Of a stretch of DNA of 24,099 nucleotides, positions 1,190 to 11,059 are shown piece by piece. Under the pieces are notes generated by a model that was not told the origin of the DNA, searched no databases, and was given only the letters and a program-made list of their open reading frames with translations. The stretch covers positions 1 through 24,099 of the IMG/VR virus record IMGVR_UViG_3300009435_000055. One strand, given 5' to 3'. Each line of letters opens with the position of its first letter. The stretch's first letter is position 1. Source of the DNA: a virus. Lineage: Duplodnaviria > Caudoviricetes. The position numbers and the translations under genes are program-made.

Positions 1190-1197
1190 ACTTTCCT

Positions 1198-1236
1198 GTT
1201 GTCTCTGTGAGATAACGATTTATCCTTGGGGGATAA
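1198..1236 (+). promoter_or_regulatory. Tandem RNA hairpins with pentaloops in the ParB leader; the second covers the SD
   Basis: GTTGTCT-CTGTG-AGATAAC (1198-1216) and TTATCC-TTGGG-GGATAA (1220-1236). ATG at 1238. Confidence 0.6.
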
Positions 1237-1237
1237 T

Positions 1238-1780
1238 ATGGTTGAGCATGAATACAAGAAACTCAAAGTTTCAGATTTAATTCCATATGTCAACAATTCA
1301 CGCACCCACTCAGAAGACCAAATCAATCAAGTGGCCGCCTCGATCAAAGAGTTCGGTTTCACCAATCCAATTTTAGTCGATGAAGATGGCGGCATCATAG
1401 CCGGTCATGGGCGCGTTATGGCCGCAAAGAAGCTGGGCCTTGAAGAAGCCCCATGTATTGAGTTAGTCGGCCTGACAGCTACACAGAAGAAAGCCTACAT
1501 CATTGCTGATAACCAGTTGGCTCTTAATGCCGGGTGGGATTTCGATCTGTTAAAACTGGAAGTTGAAACGTTGCAAGAATTGGACTTTGATGTCGGGTTG
1601 CTGGGTTTTGATGATAAATTTTTATCAGAACTACTTGATTTGGACGAATCAAAGACAACGACTTCTCCAGTTATAGACGATGAATATCTCATTGTTGTGA
1701 TGTGCGACAACGAAGAACAACAAGCGGAACTTTATGAGGAGTTTCAAGACAGACAGTTAACCATGAAAATAATGGATTGA
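1238..1780 (+). CDS. ParB/Srx N-terminal domain protein (phage packaging-locus type, no methylase fused)
   Basis: PYVNNSRTHS..QI..VAASIKEFGFTNPILVD...IIAGHGRVMAA is a classic ParB-N motif. ATG 1238 after GGGGA is preferred over TTG 1226. Short C-terminal segment EYLIVVMCDNEEQQAELYEE. Confidence 0.85.
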   Translation: MVEHEYKKLKVSDLIPYVNNSRTHSEDQINQVAASIKEFGFTNPILVDEDGGIIAGHGRVMAAKKLGLEEAPCIELVGLTATQKKAYIIADNQLALNAGWDFDLLKLEVETLQELDFDVGLLGFDDKFLSELLDLDESKTTTSPVIDDEYLIVVMCDNEEQQAELYEEFQDRQLTMKIMD

Positions 1781-1784
1781 TTAA

Positions 1785-2885
1785 ATGAAAAACTATAATG
1801 TTGTTCTAAAGTCACCAGTGTCTAAGTCGTTTCGTTGTCAAAAAGCCGCTGACAGCCTTGATATTGACACCGAAAAGAAATCTGTTCACACCCTCAACGT
1901 AGACGCTGACATTGACTCCGATTTTAATGTTGGGTTGATCATCGGCGCATCAGGGTCTGGAAAAACTACACTTGCCAAACAAATATATGGTGATGATTGT
2001 TTCGGATTTGAAATCGACCCGACTAAACCAATCATCGAGCAATTCCCGTCAGACTTTAAATACGAAGACTGTGTGAGAATTCTCAATGGTATAGGGCTTA
2101 CTTCGGTTCCTTGTTGGATTCGACCAGTGTTCACTTTATCCAATGGGCAAAAAGCCAGAGCAGAAGCTGCGTTGATATTGGCTAATGGTGAAAACTCCAT
2201 AATTGACGAATGGACAAGCGTGGTAGATAGAACCGTAGCCAAAGCAATGAGTCATTGTCTGCAAAAATCGGCACGGACGAAAAACCGAAAAATAGTCTTA
2301 TTGTCTTGTCATTATGATGTCATTGAATGGTTAAACCCTGATTGGATTATTGATTGCAATAAAGAATCATATACAGATCGGAGGTTACTTCGACAAAATT
2401 ACGAGAGAAAAGAAAAACTTGAGTTTGAAATCAGATCAGCCGATAGAAAGTCGTGGCGAATGTTTAGCAAGTATCATTATTTGAGTGATAAATTGCCCGG
2501 TGGTCATAATGAATATTATGGGTTGTTTCACGGGGACGACCAAATAGGATTTCAATGCTTCTCAAACTATGTGCCGTGGAAAGACAAACATCGTCCAAAA
2601 CAAATGCACTTTAACCGAACCGTGGTTCATCCTGATTATGTTGGTTTGGGGTTGGGCGTGTTGATGATAAACGAAACAAGTCGAATGATGAAAGAACGTG
2701 GATTTAAGGTAATGGGTAAATTTTCATCTACACCAGTTTTTAAGTCGTTGACGCAAAATACTAAGTTGTGGAAGTTAAAAAAAGCGGAGCGTCAGATAAA
2801 AACAATCACTGCCGGCGGGAATATGGACAGAAAAACAGGGTTCAGGCAAAAGATAAAAGTCTTTAGTTTTGAATATATAGGTTAA
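1785..2885 (+). CDS. ABC-type ATPase fused to a C-terminal GNAT (Mom-like) acyltransferase
   Basis: Walker A GASGSGKTT, signature LSNGQ, Walker B IIDEW, H-switch SCHYD. The C-terminal half has FSKYHYL and an acetyl-CoA-binding-like motif RTVVHPDYVGLGLG. No transmembrane segments. Confidence 0.8.
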   Translation: MKNYNVVLKSPVSKSFRCQKAADSLDIDTEKKSVHTLNVDADIDSDFNVGLIIGASGSGKTTLAKQIYGDDCFGFEIDPTKPIIEQFPSDFKYEDCVRILNGIGLTSVPCWIRPVFTLSNGQKARAEAALILANGENSIIDEWTSVVDRTVAKAMSHCLQKSARTKNRKIVLLSCHYDVIEWLNPDWIIDCNKESYTDRRLLRQNYERKEKLEFEIRSADRKSWRMFSKYHYLSDKLPGGHNEYYGLFHGDDQIGFQCFSNYVPWKDKHRPKQMHFNRTVVHPDYVGLGLGVLMINETSRMMKERGFKVMGKFSSTPVFKSLTQNTKLWKLKKAERQIKTITAGGNMDRKTGFRQKIKVFSFEYIG

Positions 2886-2919
2886 TAATGCCTCTGAATA
2901 AGAAACAAAGGGGTATTGT

Positions 2920-3807
2920 ATGAGAGAACATCTGCTCATTCCAGACTGTCAGGTTAAGCCCGGCGTTCCAATCGATCACCTTGACTGGATCGGAAAATAC
3001 ATTGTGGATAAGAAGCCCGATGTGGTTATCAACATTGGCGACTTTGCTGATATGGCATCCCTATCCAGTTATGACAAAGGAAAGCGGTCTGCTGAAGGGC
3101 GAAGAATACGAGAAGATTTAGACGCAACCTATACAGCTATGATTAAGCTGATGAAGCCGTTGAAGGATTACAACGCCAGAAAGATCAGGAACAAGGAAAA
3201 GCAATATAAGCCTGAACTTATTTTCACACTTGGCAATCACGAGCATAGGATAAGCAGGGCGGCAGAGAACGATGCTGCTTTGGATGGCTTCTTGAATCTT
3301 CAAGAACTCAACTATGAGAAGTTTGGTTGGAAGGTTTGTCCATTCCTTGATATTGCTCACGCTGACGGCATTGCCTATTCACATTATTTTTACAACCCAA
3401 TGACGGGTCGCCCCTATGGTGGGCAGAACATCAAAACGCGCCTAAACAATATCGGCTTCAGCTTCTCAATGGGCCACCAGCAAGGCTATGACTCAGGACA
3501 GAAGTATCTCAACAACGGAAGAACTATCCGCGGCCTAGTTGCAGGGTCATGTTATCTACACGATGAAGATTATATAGGGCCGCAAGCAAATGGGCATTGG
3601 AGAGGAGTTATATATAAGCATGAAGTCTTTGACGGAAACTATGACCTGATGGAAGTTTCTTTGGATTTTTTGTGCAGGCAATACAATGATATTGAACCGG
3701 GGCTTAGAGTTTGGGAATATATGAAAATCAGATACCCAGAACTCTATAAAGAATCCCATTGGCTTCAATGGCAAGAATCACGGCACAATCAGATAGAAAC
3801 TTCCTAA
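2920..3807 (+). CDS. Calcineurin-like metallophosphoesterase
   Basis: Motifs in order: IPDCQ, IGDFAD, LGNHE, YSH, MGHQQ. SD AGGGG upstream. Confidence 0.8.
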   Translation: MREHLLIPDCQVKPGVPIDHLDWIGKYIVDKKPDVVINIGDFADMASLSSYDKGKRSAEGRRIREDLDATYTAMIKLMKPLKDYNARKIRNKEKQYKPELIFTLGNHEHRISRAAENDAALDGFLNLQELNYEKFGWKVCPFLDIAHADGIAYSHYFYNPMTGRPYGGQNIKTRLNNIGFSFSMGHQQGYDSGQKYLNNGRTIRGLVAGSCYLHDEDYIGPQANGHWRGVIYKHEVFDGNYDLMEVSLDFLCRQYNDIEPGLRVWEYMKIRYPELYKESHWLQWQESRHNQIETS

Positions 3808-5572: not shown

Positions 5573-7018
5573 ATGCCAGTGTCAGACAACCATCCAGACT
5601 ATCAAGCCGCGCTTCCACAGTGGGAAATGTCGCGCGACGCTGTTGCAGGGTCTACAGCAATCAAGACTCGCCAATCTATGAGCGAAAACAATCAATCTGG
5701 CGGGAATATGGCCGGAGTTCGTTATCTGCCAATGCCAAACCCTGAAGACCAAAGTATTGAGAATCGCCAAAGATATGCGGATTACAAATTGCGAGCCAAT
5801 TATGTGAACGTCACCGGGCAGACAAAGGAAGGAATGGTTGGTCTTGTTTATCGAATCGATCCAACAGTCATCTTGCCGCCCACTATCGAATATTTGAATG
5901 GGTCAACAGATGGTGGCGCCATTACGCTCAACCAATTATCGAAGGGCGCATTGTGCGACTGCTTGGAAGTTGGTCGGTCAGGCATCTTAACTGATTACCC
6001 AATGGCCGATATTGGGCTGACTCAAAGCGAGGTTTCGGCATTAGAGCTGCGGGCCAATCTGTTGCGCTATACAGCCGAGAGTATTATCAACTGGCGAACC
6101 ATTAAAGTTGGCGGTGTTAAAAAGCTGTCTCTGGTGGTGCTTGCTGAACCAACGCAAAAGTTATCAGAAGACGGGTTCTCTTACGAATCAGTTATCTATC
6201 ACAGGGTTCTGCGATTGACTAATGGCATTTATTCTCAATCATTATATGACGAGGATGATAAGGTCATCGAAACAGATTCCGGCGAAACGCTGATCTTCCC
6301 TAGAAAGTCTAACGGGGCATTGTGGAACGAAATTCCATTCACGTTTATCGGCACAGAAGACAATGATGAAGCTGTAGACAAAGCAACGCTTTATGACATC
6401 GCAGAAGTCAACATTGCCCATTATAGAAACAGTGCAGACTATGAGGAATCCAGCTATATGGTTGGACAACCTACGCCATACGTCACTGGTTTGACACAGG
6501 GGTGGGTTGATGCGGTGCTTGATGGAAAGATAACGCTTGGATCAAGGGCCGCAATTCTATTGCCAGAAGGCGCATCAGCCGGGCTTATTCAGGCACAATC
6601 GAACCAAATGCCAATCGAAGGAATGAAGCACAAAGAACAACAAATGATCCAGATCGGCGCAAGGATAATCACTGACCAATCCGGCAATGAAACAGCGACA
6701 GGTGCCAAGATTAAGTTTGCAGGTCAGAATTCAAAGCTGGGGGCCATTATTGGAAACGTAGAAGAAGCCATTGAACGGTCACTTGGATGGGCGTTAGAGT
6801 TTATGGGCGGCGTTGGTGATGTAACGTTTGAGCTGAACAGGAAGTTCCACGATATTGAAATTGATCCGCAAGAAATCATTGCCGACATTCAATTGCTGGA
6901 TCGTGGCGTTATAGCGATGGAAGATATGCGTAATAGATTGAGGAAGTTCAACATCATTGAGCAAGACCGTGATGATGAAATGATTGAAGCCGAGGCAGAA
7001 GCAGACGACCCAATCTGA
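5573..7018 (+). CDS. Portal protein (DUF4055-type)
   Basis: 481 aa directly after TerL. HPDY...W, YLP.P, RY..Y..RA...N and IAEVNIAHYRNSADYE are typical of DUF4055 portals. Confidence 0.88.
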   Translation: MPVSDNHPDYQAALPQWEMSRDAVAGSTAIKTRQSMSENNQSGGNMAGVRYLPMPNPEDQSIENRQRYADYKLRANYVNVTGQTKEGMVGLVYRIDPTVILPPTIEYLNGSTDGGAITLNQLSKGALCDCLEVGRSGILTDYPMADIGLTQSEVSALELRANLLRYTAESIINWRTIKVGGVKKLSLVVLAEPTQKLSEDGFSYESVIYHRVLRLTNGIYSQSLYDEDDKVIETDSGETLIFPRKSNGALWNEIPFTFIGTEDNDEAVDKATLYDIAEVNIAHYRNSADYEESSYMVGQPTPYVTGLTQGWVDAVLDGKITLGSRAAILLPEGASAGLIQAQSNQMPIEGMKHKEQQMIQIGARIITDQSGNETATGAKIKFAGQNSKLGAIIGNVEEAIERSLGWALEFMGGVGDVTFELNRKFHDIEIDPQEIIADIQLLDRGVIAMEDMRNRLRKFNIIEQDRDDEMIEAEAEADDPI

Positions 7019-8046
7019 TGAGTGACTTCTTGCTTGATGCCACCGTTCGTCATGCCGTGTTTGTTCAACGGTATGCTTCCGGTCAAGCCAGAGAAATCAA
7101 AGAGCCGTTGTTCGTGCTGCGAGATAACGTTGTCGAAAGGCTGTTGTCAGAACCAGATAACTTTGACGAAGTGCGGATGGCTCAGTTGATGGAAGCTGTC
7201 GGCAGTTACAGCGATGAATTCTCTGAGGATTTTAGCAAGAAGATGTCGGTGATGATTGAAGATTTCTCGGAATCAGAAACAGAGTTTAGCTATGAGATGT
7301 TGGCTGCTGTCGTTATCGGGGCTGGTTTTTTAATGCCAGACAAAGGCCATATTGCTCGGACTGTAGCCAGAAAAGAGATGTCGGTACTGGATGGGGCAGG
7401 GACAATTACGGCAAAAGACGCGACCACACAATTTACAAAAAAGAAGGGCCGTGAGATAATCCGAACCATCAATGATGCCATATTGCTTGGGAGTACAACG
7501 AAAGAAGCGGCAGCGAACGTTTCAGAATTGATAAGTTTAAGGCAAGCAGCGCAAGCCGAATCGTTGACAAAGACAACCGCCAATTTTATCAGTGCAGCAG
7601 CGACAGATTCGGTTATAACGGCAAATTCTGCATTGTTTGCTGGCTATCAATGGGTGTCAATCTTAGATTCAAGAACAACTTTGATTTGTGCTGGCCGTGA
7701 TGGGAATATTTATCCTGTAGGAAAAGGGCCATTGCCTCCGGCTCATTGGGGTTGTCGTTCACGGGTCTTACCTTTAGTTAAGCCAGAATTTGAAAAGGAT
7801 AAGGCCAGAGCTGGGAGTAGCAGACCATCTCCAAAGGATTACGGCGACTGGCTAAAGAGTCAGCCGGCCAGCTTCCAAGACGAATATTTCTCAAAGTTCC
7901 CAGACGGGGCAAAGAAAGCAAAACTATTTAGGGCAGGTGGTTTGCCCATTGAAAGGTTCCGAGATGAGCTTGGGGCCGAATATACATTGGAACAATTAAG
8001 GAATTTAAACCCAGTTGCGTTTCAACGGGCAGGGGTGGCACTGTAA
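7018..8046 (+). CDS. Minor head protein (SPP1 gp7 / Mu gpF family)
   Basis: WVSILDSRTTLIC...PPAHWGCRS signature; lies after the portal. Confidence 0.9.
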   Translation: MSDFLLDATVRHAVFVQRYASGQAREIKEPLFVLRDNVVERLLSEPDNFDEVRMAQLMEAVGSYSDEFSEDFSKKMSVMIEDFSESETEFSYEMLAAVVIGAGFLMPDKGHIARTVARKEMSVLDGAGTITAKDATTQFTKKKGREIIRTINDAILLGSTTKEAAANVSELISLRQAAQAESLTKTTANFISAAATDSVITANSALFAGYQWVSILDSRTTLICAGRDGNIYPVGKGPLPPAHWGCRSRVLPLVKPEFEKDKARAGSSRPSPKDYGDWLKSQPASFQDEYFSKFPDGAKKAKLFRAGGLPIERFRDELGAEYTLEQLRNLNPVAFQRAGVAL

Positions 8047-8068
8047 TAATTTATAGTGTATAAGGAAT

Positions 8069-8096
8069 ATAGCCGGTGGCTATTGGTTTGTGACCA
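8069..8096 (+). promoter_or_regulatory. Tandem pentaloop hairpins in the scaffold leader
   Basis: ATAGC-CGGTG-GCTAT (8069-8083) and TGGT-TTGTG-ACCA (8084-8096), just upstream of SD CAGGA and ATG 8114. Confidence 0.6.
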
Positions 8097-8113
8097 TAAA
8101 CAGGAAAATAACT

Positions 8114-8761
8114 ATGAGCGACGAAAACGAAGCAGAAGTTAAGCCAAATGAAGAAATGTTGGCGATGGCTGAACAGTTAAAAGAGGCGCAAGCCAACAAT
8201 GATTCAATGAAGTTGAAAATGGATCAGTTGTTATCAGAAACAAAGAAAGCAAAGGATTTGCAGCGAGAAGCCGAAGTTGTAGCTACTCGCGAGGCTGAAG
8301 AAAAAGCCAAGAAGGATGGGGATTTCCAGCAGTTGCATAAAAGCAGCGAGGAAGCCCGCCAAGCACTGGAGGAAAGGTTGACTGAATTGATGTCGGCAAA
8401 CGCTAATGAAAAGCGCAACACCGCAGCGATAAAGATTTCTTCTGAGCTTGCAGACGGTTATAACGCAGAATTGTTATCTGGGTTTGTGGCCAGCCGGTTG
8501 AAATACACCGATGACGGATTGAAAGTTGTTGACGCTGCTGGGAACTTAACTGTTTCCACTGTTGACGACTTAAAAACAGAATTCCAAGCTGATGCGCGAT
8601 ATGCGGCATTACTAAAAGGCAATCAATCGTCTGGTGGGTCAGCAAATGGAAGTTCTGCGAACAACGGCAAAGCTAAAGTTATGACAAGGGCTGATTTTGA
8701 CAAACAAAGCCCTGAAAACAGGATGAAATTTATGACTTCAGGGGGCGCAATTCACGACTAA
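8114..8761 (+). CDS. Capsid scaffolding protein
   Basis: Charged coiled-coil, Gly/Ser/Asn linker and C-terminal MTRADFDKQSPENRMKF helix; immediately before the capsid gene. ATG 8114 follows CAGGA. Confidence 0.85.
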   Translation: MSDENEAEVKPNEEMLAMAEQLKEAQANNDSMKLKMDQLLSETKKAKDLQREAEVVATREAEEKAKKDGDFQQLHKSSEEARQALEERLTELMSANANEKRNTAAIKISSELADGYNAELLSGFVASRLKYTDDGLKVVDAAGNLTVSTVDDLKTEFQADARYAALLKGNQSSGGSANGSSANNGKAKVMTRADFDKQSPENRMKFMTSGGAIHD

Positions 8762-8774
8762 AGCCCAAACATAA

Positions 8775-8835
8775 TGCGAGGGCCCGTGGCTGACGCAGAC
8801 AAATCAAAGGCGCAACGGTTTGTGACCGATTAGCC
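8775..8835 (+). promoter_or_regulatory. Tandem pentaloop hairpins in the major capsid leader
   Basis: TGCG-AG-GGC-CCGTG-GCT-GA-CGCA (8775-8797) and CGGT-TTGTG-ACCG (8816-8828, extendable by GGC/GCC), then a U-rich tract and SD AAGGA. Confidence 0.6.
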
Positions 8836-8876
8836 AAAAAACACTTTTCTTTTTTTCTTTTCAAGGACTAATTATC

Positions 8877-10016
8877 ATGGCTAATACACTAACTAACCTA
8901 GCACCAGACCTATATCAAGCACTCGACACTGTTTCACGCGAACTGGTTGGATTCATTCCTTCAGTAACTCTTGATTCAGGCGTTGAACGCGCTGCTGTAG
9001 GGCAAAACGTCCGCAGTTATGTTACTCCGGCGGCCACAGCGTCAAACATCACTCCCGGCGTTACTGCCCCGAATGATGGCGACAATGTAATTACCAACCA
9101 ATCAATCACTATCACCAAAGCGCGTGGCGTTCCTGTTCGTTGGAATGGCGAAGAACAACGTGGCATGAATTCTGGCCCCGGTTATAGCTCTATCCTTCAA
9201 TCTCAGTTTGCTCAGGCGATGCGTACACTGACGAACGAAATGGAAGCTGATCTGGCTGGCTTGTATAGCACCACTTCTCGCGCCTATGGTACGGCTGGCA
9301 CTACGCCATTCGCTTCTGACCTGACTGACACCGCACAAGTTCGCAAGATTCTTGCTGATAACGGCGCACCTTTGTCAGATATGCAGATGGTTATCGATAC
9401 CACTGCGGGCGCGAAAATGCGTACTCTAACCCAACTAACTAAAGCCAACGAAGCTGCTGATGCGTCTTTGCTGCGTCAAGGCGTTTTGCTTGATGTTCAT
9501 GGCATGGCTATTCGTGAGTCGGCTCAAGTCGGCACAATCACCAACGGCACCGGAACCAGCTACACTTCCAGCACTGCTGGTTTTGCTGTTGGAGCTACCA
9601 GCATCGCACTTATCACTGGCTCAGGAACTATTCTGGCTGGTGATGTTATTACCTTCGCTGGTGATGCAAATAAGTATGTTGTTGAAGTTGGCATTTCCGC
9701 TCCCGGTTCAATCACTATCGCTGCTCCCGGCTTGCGTCAAGCTGTTGCGGCTTCTGCTGTTGCTGTTACTGTTGGCGGTGATTTTGCTGCAAACATGGCA
9801 TTCAGTCGTTCAGCCATCGTTCTTGCTACTCGCGCCCCCGCCATTCCATCTGAAGGCGATAGTGCAGACGATGCGATGATGATTACTGATCCGCGTTCTG
9901 GCTTGAGCTTTGAGGTTCGTCTTTATAAGCAATATCGTCAGATTCGTTATGAAGTGGCTGCTGCTTGGGGCCAACATAACTTTAAGCCAGAGCATACAGC
10001 TTTGCTGCTTGGTTAA
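8877..10016 (+). CDS. Major capsid protein, P22 coat-like HK97 fold with a beta insertion domain
   Basis: MANTLT...ALDTVSRELVGFIP start and C-terminal DPRSGLSFEVR..KQYRQ..YEV...WG...KPEH. Biased codon usage, strong SD, followed by a terminator. Confidence 0.92.
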   Translation: MANTLTNLAPDLYQALDTVSRELVGFIPSVTLDSGVERAAVGQNVRSYVTPAATASNITPGVTAPNDGDNVITNQSITITKARGVPVRWNGEEQRGMNSGPGYSSILQSQFAQAMRTLTNEMEADLAGLYSTTSRAYGTAGTTPFASDLTDTAQVRKILADNGAPLSDMQMVIDTTAGAKMRTLTQLTKANEAADASLLRQGVLLDVHGMAIRESAQVGTITNGTGTSYTSSTAGFAVGATSIALITGSGTILAGDVITFAGDANKYVVEVGISAPGSITIAAPGLRQAVAASAVAVTVGGDFAANMAFSRSAIVLATRAPAIPSEGDSADDAMMITDPRSGLSFEVRLYKQYRQIRYEVAAAWGQHNFKPEHTALLLG

Positions 10017-10024
10017 TCCCAGTT

Positions 10025-10048
10025 GGGGGGCTTCGGCCCCTCTTTTTT
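10025..10048 (+). terminator. Rho-independent terminator after the capsid gene
   Basis: GGGGGC-TTCG-GCCCCT stem with a cUUCGg tetraloop, followed by CTTTTTT. Confidence 0.85.
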
Positions 10049-10067
10049 CTTATTTTTGGGGTGAGTT

Positions 10068-10199
10068 ATGAAACTCGAAACAGTAGTTGTTCAAACTGAA
10101 GCTGGGCCTGTTGTTATCAACAAGTCTGACTTTGACGCAAAGAAACACAGCTTAGAAACAAAGCAAGTCAAGAAAGCCAAAAAAGCCAAGGCTGAATAA
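10068..10199 (+). CDS. Small capsid-adjacent protein (43 aa), not in the ORF track
   Basis: MKLETVVVQTEAGPVVINKSDFDAKKHSLETKQVKKAKKAKAE*. GGGGTGAG SD upstream; TAA overlaps the next ATG. Confidence 0.75.
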   Translation: MKLETVVVQTEAGPVVINKSDFDAKKHSLETKQVKKAKKAKAE

Positions 10200-11059
10200 T
10201 GGCCGATGAAATTCCGTTCAAGAAAACACCTCCAAAGTGGCGAACCATTGCCGCTGGAATTTGGACGGACATTCTCAACGATTGGTCTGCATCATTTGAA
10301 ACGAGCAATCGAGGAACGACTGCGCTAGGCGTTTTTATTCAAGATCAAACTTCACAAGTTCTTTCTGTTCCCTTTTTGAAAGACAAAACACCAACAACCC
10401 TAGCAGTTGACGCAGCAGTTAATACTCGCACATTGACACTTTCTCCGGGTCATGGTGCTGTAGTGGGTGATGTCTTAAAATTATCAGAAGGTCTAAATTT
10501 TATCCAAGCTGAAATTCTTGTCGTTGCTGTCAATGTGATAACAATAGATCAACCGACTTCATTTGCGAAAGTTGCGGGTTCTCCTGTTGTTATATCTACA
10601 CAAAATATGTTGGTCGATGGATCAGTCACCCCAGAAATTTTCCGCGTGTTGCCATTGCCCGAACAGGTTGTCGATGTTGTGAGCGTTATTTTGGAAATAC
10701 GCGGTGCTTCTGGTGACATTATGGATTTCAGTTCTTTTGGCAGCAGGGAGGAATTGACCAACGGTTGTGTGCTTAGAATTAACAATGGCGACAACACGTT
10801 TAAAAACTTGTTTAATTTTAAATCAAATTCTGATTTCATAGGGAGAGGGTTTGACCACGCTTTCTTAAACGCGAAAACTGGCAACACGATTGCTGGGTTC
10901 ACCTCAAGAGTTACATGGGGCGGACAGTCTAAGCATGGTGTAGTCATACGAATTGATGGAAATAAGGGTGAATCCTTAGAGTTGATCGTGCAAGATAACC
11001 TTCTGGGCGTTAATACTCGCTTCCGTTTATCCACGCAAGGCCATGAGGTGCAAAATTAA
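10199..11059 (+). CDS. Uncharacterised beta-rich putative virion protein (286 aa)
   Basis: Long ORF coupled at both ends (TAATG; stop 1 nt before the adaptor ATG). Val/Ile/Thr/Gly-rich. No family recognised. Confidence 0.75.
   Translation: MADEIPFKKTPPKWRTIAAGIWTDILNDWSASFETSNRGTTALGVFIQDQTSQVLSVPFLKDKTPTTLAVDAAVNTRTLTLSPGHGAVVGDVLKLSEGLNFIQAEILVVAVNVITIDQPTSFAKVAGSPVVISTQNMLVDGSVTPEIFRVLPLPEQVVDVVSVILEIRGASGDIMDFSSFGSREELTNGCVLRINNGDNTFKNLFNFKSNSDFIGRGFDHAFLNAKTGNTIAGFTSRVTWGGQSKHGVVIRIDGNKGESLELIVQDNLLGVNTRFRLSTQGHEVQN

Follow-up and report, generated by a model that had tools for sequence, protein, structure and literature searches.

In the head-tail operon of the virus analysed here, the genes for the scaffolding protein and the major capsid (coat) protein are each preceded by two small hairpins with similar loops, and the questions raised by this locus are whether the two pairs are one and the same RNA signal, where related phages carry it, and what might read it. 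The initial annotation, which was made from the letters alone, had described matching twin-hairpin elements with five-nucleotide loops and covarying stems in front of both genes, and had pointed to the autoregulation of the phage P22 scaffold as a precedent. The window (the whole stretch of DNA that was analysed, 24,099 nucleotides) comes from the record of a 24-kb virus that CheckV rates as 55% complete, and its head-tail operon encodes terminase, a DUF4055 portal, a Mu F-like protein, scaffold, major capsid and a contractile tail. In the window, coat is the next gene after scaffold, and the relevant features are as follows.

7018..8046, plus strand: head morphogenesis gene (Mu F-like; phrog_241, PF04233), 5′ of the element
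8059..8064, plus strand: possible -10 hexamer TATAAG, 4 nt 5′ of the first stem (from sequence)
8069..8083, plus strand: scaffold-leader hairpin S1, ATAGC-CGGTG-GCTAT, a 5-bp stem plus C-G closing pair with a GGU triloop (covariation in relatives)
8084..8096, plus strand: scaffold-leader hairpin S2, TGGT-TTGTG-ACCA, a 4-bp stem plus U-G closing pair with a UGU triloop
8102..8105, plus strand: Shine-Dalgarno-like AGGA of the scaffold gene (from sequence)
8114..8761, plus strand: head scaffolding protein, 215 aa, ATG at 8114 (phrog_206)
8775..8797, plus strand: coat-leader hairpin C1, GGC-CCGTG-GCT core at 8781-8791 with a CGU triloop, the stem extended across a 2x2 internal loop
8816..8828, plus strand: coat-leader hairpin C2, CGGT-TTGTG-ACCG, with a UGU triloop
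8845..8867, plus strand: pyrimidine-rich stretch followed by the coat Shine-Dalgarno-like AAGGA at 8863-8867 (from sequence)
8877..10016, plus strand: major capsid protein, P22-coat-like in the annotation of relatives (phrog_283, annotated phage matches)
10025..10042, plus strand: intrinsic-terminator-like hairpin, 3′ of the coat gene

The hairpins of the window

All four hairpins stand where the initial annotation had placed them, and the identical core that it had seen in S2 and C2, GGTTTGTGACC, occurs in the window at 8085 and 8817 only, both strands having been searched. S2 ends 5 nt from the scaffold Shine-Dalgarno and is weak alone, with a pairing probability of about 0.2 in context. On the coat side the pair is predicted to be stable in the window: C1 reaches a pairing probability of at least 0.98 and has counterparts with different stems at the same place in two relatives (L001 and L003), and the loop of C2 starts 57 nt 5′ of the coat ATG. 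Nevertheless, the window alone is not proof of an element, since it contains 27 plus-strand and 14 minus-strand NNGTG hairpins of at least 3 bp (41 on the two strands) and the folding z-scores of the leaders, between -0.5 and -1.9, are uninformative; the proof has to come from relatives. A further hairpin inside the scaffold gene of the window (8481-8491) was taken as chance, its position not being conserved.

The hexamer at 8059..8064 is a possible internal promoter for scaffold and coat, although a sigma-70 consensus scan did not call it and found no plus-strand promoter in 7900-10300. Just 3′ of C2, eight bases (8829-8836) are complementary to the coat start region (8878-8885), with which folding predicts a pairing; L001 and L003 keep no more than 4-5 of these bases.

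Among cultured phages, Paraglaciecola Antarctic JLT virus 2 is the nearest relative (71.5% coat and 52.4% scaffold identity), and a search of a genome collection returned one match, a 3.8-kb contig inside a Psychromonas MAG; given this phage relative and this contig, the host is likely a marine gammaproteobacterium. In metatranscriptome X1, near-identical contigs cover 8133-9612 (depth 422) and the region upstream (depth 14-26), contigs that show neither start, strand nor expression rank, and 7994-8132, including the scaffold leader, is uncovered.

Conservation and pairing in front of the scaffold gene

The comparison drew on 245 sequences (the fetched loci and the window), of which 230 have a callable scaffold start and yield 137 distinct leaders. 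These are represented by 101 leaders with less than 80% scaffold identity, 58 of which are at least 43% identical to the window scaffold, a cut-off picked after the list had been seen. At least one Y-N-G-T-G hairpin lies within 75 nt of the scaffold start in 55 of these 58 dereplicated relatives and at least two in 35, compared with means of 1.89 (maximum 6) and 0.01 (maximum 1) per 58 leaders in 100 dinucleotide shuffles, and with a single leader when the minus strand is used as control. The three misses are a miscalled start (L067), a 2-bp stem (L163) and a locus without a leader (L025). When YNGTG words are counted without any selection on pairing, 92/114 in the leaders have a stem versus 223/1886 elsewhere. 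The pair is also present in the scaffold leader of Paraglaciecola phage JLT2 (MW805362), a cultured carrier in which the reader could be sought directly.

When a covariance model trained on 26 leaders is run on five whole records, four of them (one a training sequence) give a single match each, located at the scaffold start; on the window, likewise a training sequence, the model scores strongly at the scaffold leader only, with 12.4 bits (E 0.27) at the coat leader. The initial annotation had allowed for a match to an existing family, and Rfam 15, including GP20-a and GP20-b, gave none at the gathering threshold: the window had 4 chance-level matches (E 4.7-7.3), none of them in 8047-8890, and 7 related loci had 0. 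Judged by sequence comparison, the element is a real cis-acting RNA signal without an Rfam match, and it holds a fixed strand and a fixed position 5′ of one gene family, as cis-regulatory structured RNAs do.

The anatomy of the unit was derived from 111 hairpins, selected on an xxGTx loop and on three of the four flanking pairs being Watson-Crick. The first and fifth loop positions are C-G in 55 of them, U-G in 39, U-A in 4, C-A in 0 and something else in 13, while the second varies (U 51, A 45, G 9, C 6). Positions 1 and 5 therefore pair, and the supposed five-nucleotide loop is instead an N-G-U triloop on a Y-R closing pair (Y·G in the hairpins of the window). The base after position 5 pairs in 38/38 rows of distal hairpins, a bulged sixth nucleotide being absent. 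Among 98 hairpins, the first three pairs of the stem include 10 G-U and 0 A-C combinations; this tolerance of G-U and absence of A-C, seen again at the closing pair (U-G 39 versus C-A 0), points to RNA of the sense (mRNA) strand.

The covariation read from the window extends, in its relatives, to compensatory change at every pair. Specifically, in 38 distinct distal hairpins all 7 pairs vary on both sides, with 108 such cells versus 35.6 in shuffles (0/500), and 87% of cells pair at the true register versus 33-47% in slid controls; in 26 two-hairpin leaders 94% of cells pair, both sets having been chosen as paired, which biases the counts upward. The proximal loop lies 13-40 nt from the scaffold start, and in 49/55 leaders a Shine-Dalgarno-like word (leniently chosen) begins no more than 5 nt from the last stem or overlaps it.

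More distant scaffolds show the same arrangement with other loops, namely N-G-G, N-G-A, Y-N-A-G-G or Y-GGAU-G. At least two N-G-G hairpins are found in 10/25 representatives at 25-43% scaffold identity, and the proximal hairpin holds the Shine-Dalgarno itself in N-G-G and several N-G-A leaders. The apical G and the closing pair are common to the N-G-U, N-G-G and N-G-A classes, which are mixed in one locus (L217). For experiment, the element is a minimal and mutable target, and the N-G-U and N-G-G lineages provide a natural specificity swap. Cultured phages with a related coat are JLT2, qsb1, P106B, CGphi29 and HK639 (L247-L251), with GGAUG-type loops in HK639 and CGphi29 (both leaders) and in P106B, and CAAGG-type loops in Acinetobacter phage qsb1; through HK639 the fixed-loop leader class could readily be tested in E. 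coli.

Some loci depart from the common arrangement. Three (L057-L059) have long coat leaders with repeated Y-UGC-G hairpins and none of these in their scaffold leaders, one (L014) has a single GGC-CCGTG-GCC hairpin in its coat leader and a scaffold 2.2 kb upstream without such a leader, and five N-G-G loci (L254, L261, L262, L265 and L286) have an extra CAGGG hairpin in the early part of the scaffold gene, about 75 nt into it and about 610 nt from its stop.

Copies hidden in the scaffold coding sequence

The initial claim that the hairpins precede both genes stood for the scaffold (55/58 leaders) and not for the coat, where a separate intergenic copy is confined to 3/74 distinct scaffold-coat junctions (L001, L003, and the window together with L081, an identical copy of it), a single group on the scaffold tree (SH-aLRT 93). 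Most relatives hold hairpins in the 3′ coding sequence of the scaffold gene, and in that form the signal does mark the stretch 5′ of coat, as had been proposed. More specifically, a histogram of positions shows that hairpins pile up a second time within the scaffold gene, at about 100, 125 and 212 nt from its stop codon, the sites at about 100 and 125 falling in a Gly-rich linker that is unstructured in the AlphaFold model.

Gly-Gly-Ala codons favour such hairpins, and random synonymous recoding was therefore used as the null. In the stretch 88-140 nt before the scaffold stop, a region chosen after the histogram had been seen, a Y-NGU-G hairpin occurs in 48/60 N-G-U loci versus 10.1 after recoding (maximum 18 in 300 recodings), and a Y-NGG-G hairpin in 10/10 N-G-G loci versus 0.8 (maximum 4). 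The coat gene, treated in the same way as a control, has no excess (21 versus 17.3). With a stem of at least 4 bp required, 41 of the 60 N-G-U loci have embedded copies, 3 intergenic ones, 0 both and 16 neither.

The hidden copies also agree with the leader in their third loop letter. At the site 100 nt before the stop it is T in 43/47 N-G-U loci and G in 9/9 N-G-G loci with a hairpin, GGG being rare in the scaffolds of the latter lineage (53/553 Gly codons), and the switch from U to G in the leader amounts to 1 independent contrast when only well-supported branches count and to 2 when the best tree is used, so that a Fisher test of the match overstates it. A further 16 rows with N-G-G leaders agree on the letter, most of them being close kin and some the same contigs, and the one N-A-G locus (L078) repeats its own loop word 134 and 103 nt ahead of the scaffold stop. 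In N-G-A lineages hidden N-G-A copies are without clear excess (2/8 versus 0.6, maximum 3), and lineages with GGAUG leaders have embedded copies in that stretch in 0/5 cases, with none in HK639, CGphi29 or P106B.

What is surprising here is the presence of hidden coding-sequence copies together with a loop letter matched between them and the leader; the element thus described appears as a variant of the scaffold-leader class with an unexpected hidden second site. The hidden copies suggest that RNA structure shapes part of the scaffold linker, which is predicted to be disordered, and codons shaped in this way would matter for the annotation and recoding of phage head genes.

A third hidden hairpin, some 212 nt from the stop, spans L-T-V-S codons in 24/60 loci (L004, L009 and L054 among them) versus 2.5 after recoding. 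Its sequence starts with TTGAC, and it was tried as the -35 box of a promoter and rejected, only 6/18 having even a 4/6 match to a -10 box.

The coat-side hairpins lie at a variable distance of about 50-140 nt 5′ of the coat start and therefore cannot cover the coat ribosome site directly. Clamping them in folding predictions lowers the pairing of the Shine-Dalgarno region from 0.77 to 0.56 in L001 and from 0.73 to 0.39 in L003, and leaves it at 0.56 in the window, which suggests that, in the model, their folding frees the coat Shine-Dalgarno in the two relatives and not in the window.

Possible readers and known systems

A single trans-acting reader would be expected to select such a pattern, in which the tip is fixed, the stems vary freely and the copies of one genome match each other, and the placement of the hairpins at or over the Shine-Dalgarno makes repression of scaffold translation the most direct outcome. 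The reading that we favour, at slightly less than an even chance, is that the hairpins form a protein-bound array of translational operators, most likely read by free scaffold, which would repress its own translation. Specifically, one phage head protein, likeliest unassembled scaffold, would bind the Y-NGU-G tips; a dimer of the scaffold, a predicted coiled coil, could use its small domains to grip a pair of hairpins separated by 12-22 nt, and a bound pair beside the ribosome site would repress scaffold translation. Surplus scaffold would in this manner stop its own production and couple it to the supply of coat, while any effect of the downstream pair on coat, given its distance from the coat start, would be indirect (through refolding, processing or stability).

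A more far-reaching version, which we regard as rather doubtful, is that the scaffolds of this family are sequence-specific RNA-binding proteins reading a lineage-specific triloop code that recurs along their own message, including wobble bases of the Gly-rich linker, with free scaffold blocking its own start and governing coat from the downstream pair. Such an arrangement would be a self-contained sensor of the scaffold-to-coat ratio and would give long-known scaffold autoregulation a defined RNA target. AlphaFold2 models of the scaffold show a long helix (11-112), a small alpha/beta domain of 60 residues (about 113-168), the Gly-rich linker and a C-terminal domain (189-214), the alpha/beta domain being conserved and having conserved basic residues. 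Pfam gives no match to the scaffold, a fold search with the full model returns coiled coils only, and for the small domain nothing is found by sequence or, with Foldseek, at E <= 0.001. The best VIA-align match of residues 100-170 is weak (Z 3.7, rmsd 3.4, 57 aligned) and the best Atlas score of 0.86 is a lead only; a weak fold match is no evidence of a new fold.

The loop class changes 4 times on the scaffold tree versus 7 on the coat tree for 65 taxa (at least 13 in shuffles), and 4, 6 and 6 times on the scaffold, coat and Mu F trees for 50 taxa; since the leader is physically attached to the scaffold gene, tracking of the scaffold tree is expected from linkage alone. No scaffold residue was seen by eye to track the loop letter. 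Some loci (L025, L033, L209, L211, L213 and L223) have no scaffold leader, the scaffold gene lying 13-21 nt after the Mu F stop; the conserved scaffold residues are kept in L025, L209, L213 and L223, and the embedded hairpins 5′ of coat in L025, L033 and L223.

The RNA-level evidence is blind to the identity of the reader, and a lineage-specific loop letter would fit any phage-encoded one. The same operator might then be read by another phage protein, either free coat or a small regulator, which is nevertheless unlikely: the coat tree fits the loop class worse (7 versus 4 changes), coats 72% identical to that of the window go with N-G-A leaders and a distant scaffold (L028 and L035), the scaffold-coat gap of the window is without a gene, and a CsrA family gene (PF02599) is present in 0/5 records, of which two are classed complete, one is a cultured genome and that of the window is 55% complete.

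We consider it quite unlikely that the role of the hairpins, whether or not a protein binds them, is to govern the processing or stability of the mRNA, as protected 5′ ends or cleavage marks that would raise scaffold-coat RNA over upstream RNA and coat RNA over scaffold RNA. The first stem often begins 4-10 nt 3′ of a -10-like hexamer, a match of at least 5/6 to TATAAT lying within 25 nt of it in 26/55 leaders (shuffle mean 12.0, maximum 23 in 1000 shuffles), and this would suit such a role, as would coat-side pairs at varying distances too far from the coat start to cover it, and leaderless loci (L025 and L223) that keep the embedded pair. However, a plain 5′ protective hairpin requires no fixed loop, the stems are short and weak, the proximal N-G-G hairpin contains the Shine-Dalgarno, and in many relatives the leader directly follows the stop codon of the preceding gene or a terminator.

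Decidedly improbable, in our view, is a host RNA-binding protein that reads Y-NGN-G triloops and tunes the translation of very abundant messages. It could account for the apical G and closing pair common to three loop classes and for their mixture in L217, and C-G-closed triloops have been proposed as protein-recognition motifs elsewhere (PMC1636360); a tolerant shared reader, on the other hand, would not demand that the third loop base match between leader and hidden copies despite a rare codon, and N-G-U loops lack the GGA core of CsrA sites.

The tandem hairpins, standing just 3′ of a possible promoter, might also resemble nut/boxB-like or put-like signals for antitermination, allowing read-through of late-operon terminators such as the one after the coat gene and those before the leader in several relatives. 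This is very unlikely, as hairpins 3′ of a terminator are no help in passing it, the spacing to the Shine-Dalgarno and start is tight (with the Shine-Dalgarno enclosed in sister lineages), and the extra copies lie up to 700 nt downstream inside coding sequence. Finally, action as double-stranded DNA (a palindromic operator or hairpin promoter), which the initial annotation had named as the finding that would count against an RNA element, or plain chance, could be suspected from short inverted repeats near a possible promoter and from the abundance of such hairpins in the window, but appears largely refuted and is barely credible, because pairing is conserved and the stem sequences are not, on the sense strand alone G-U is accepted but A-C is excluded, and the minus strand gives 1/58 and shuffles at most 6/58.

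Among known systems, the closest in function to the favoured operator is P22, where self-regulation of the scaffold has reportedly been on record since 1985, in the work of Casjens and Adams and of Wyckoff and Casjens. The N-terminus of the P22 scaffold is implicated in translational autoregulation (bioRxiv 2022.12.13.520362). The P22 precedent applies to function, in that a scaffold partnered by a P22-like coat controls its own synthesis post-transcriptionally, and fails for the RNA site: gene 8 begins 13 nt after the portal stop, gene 5 overlaps the stop of gene 8, and there is no intergenic twin-hairpin leader, a Y-NGU-G pair being absent by eye before both genes. No P22 record is among 8 tblastn matches to the window scaffold.

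Predicted structured RNAs in leaders have been published for another gene family, GP20, which we take to be a scaffold protein. Fremin et al. 2023 (PMC10690425) predicted cis-regulatory structured RNAs no more than 25 nt from phage GP20-type genes, including GP20-a (RF02991), GP20-b (RF03003) and other candidates 5′ of GP20, DUF4355 and Phage-scaffold genes, the named hosts of these leader candidates being mostly gut or soil bacteria; the study lists 8,495 DNA-virus candidates in all. The element differs from GP20-a and GP20-b in that neither the window nor the 7 related loci match Rfam and the window scaffold has no Pfam match. Five 11-nt motif strings are absent from the searched supplementary files of PMC10690425, and the motif may be among the candidates of that study or in the supplement of Weinberg 2017 (PMC5737381), both compared by description only. 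A literature search found neither a description of a Y-NGU-G scaffold-leader element nor a conserved RNA site for scaffold self-regulation in phages other than P22.

CsrA/RsmA operators are tandem small hairpins with fixed loops, the last of them at the Shine-Dalgarno; the loops here differ in being N-G-U without GGA, as do the phages in the absence of a CsrA gene from the five records. In shape, the tip resembles HBV epsilon, whose UGU triloop, closed by C-G, has been put forward as a motif for protein recognition and likened to IRE and TAR (PMC1636360), and the Roquin CDE, a triloop read by Roquin (PMC11499389). The pair between positions 1 and 5 that closes those triloops is found here too (C-G 55, U-G 39 and U-A 4 of 111), whereas the pseudo-triloops of HBV epsilon and IRE carry a bulged sixth base that is absent here; HBV epsilon, IRE and CDE belong to eukaryotes or animal viruses, and the likeness is one of shape and not of homology. 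In phage YuA a conserved, transcribed ncRNA candidate derived from the 5′UTR precedes the major head gene gp56 (PMC10914365), and, as described, it is like the present element in being a conserved part of a major head leader.

Two further stretches of the window deserve mention. Directly 5′ of the terminase genes, 1238-3807 (plus strand) encodes ParB-like, ATPase/acetyltransferase-like (phrog_11143) and metallophosphoesterase proteins, and in the short gap before the ParB-like gene (ATG 1238), which is absent from 5 related records, an 8-bp hairpin at 1197-1217 (plus strand) has the same Y-NGU-G tip (CTGTG) and could be a fifth site, or chance. After the coat terminator, 10071-10180 (plus strand) holds an apparent short reading frame, below the 50-aa cut-off used for open reading frames, with similar N-termini in L001, L003, L005 and L020.
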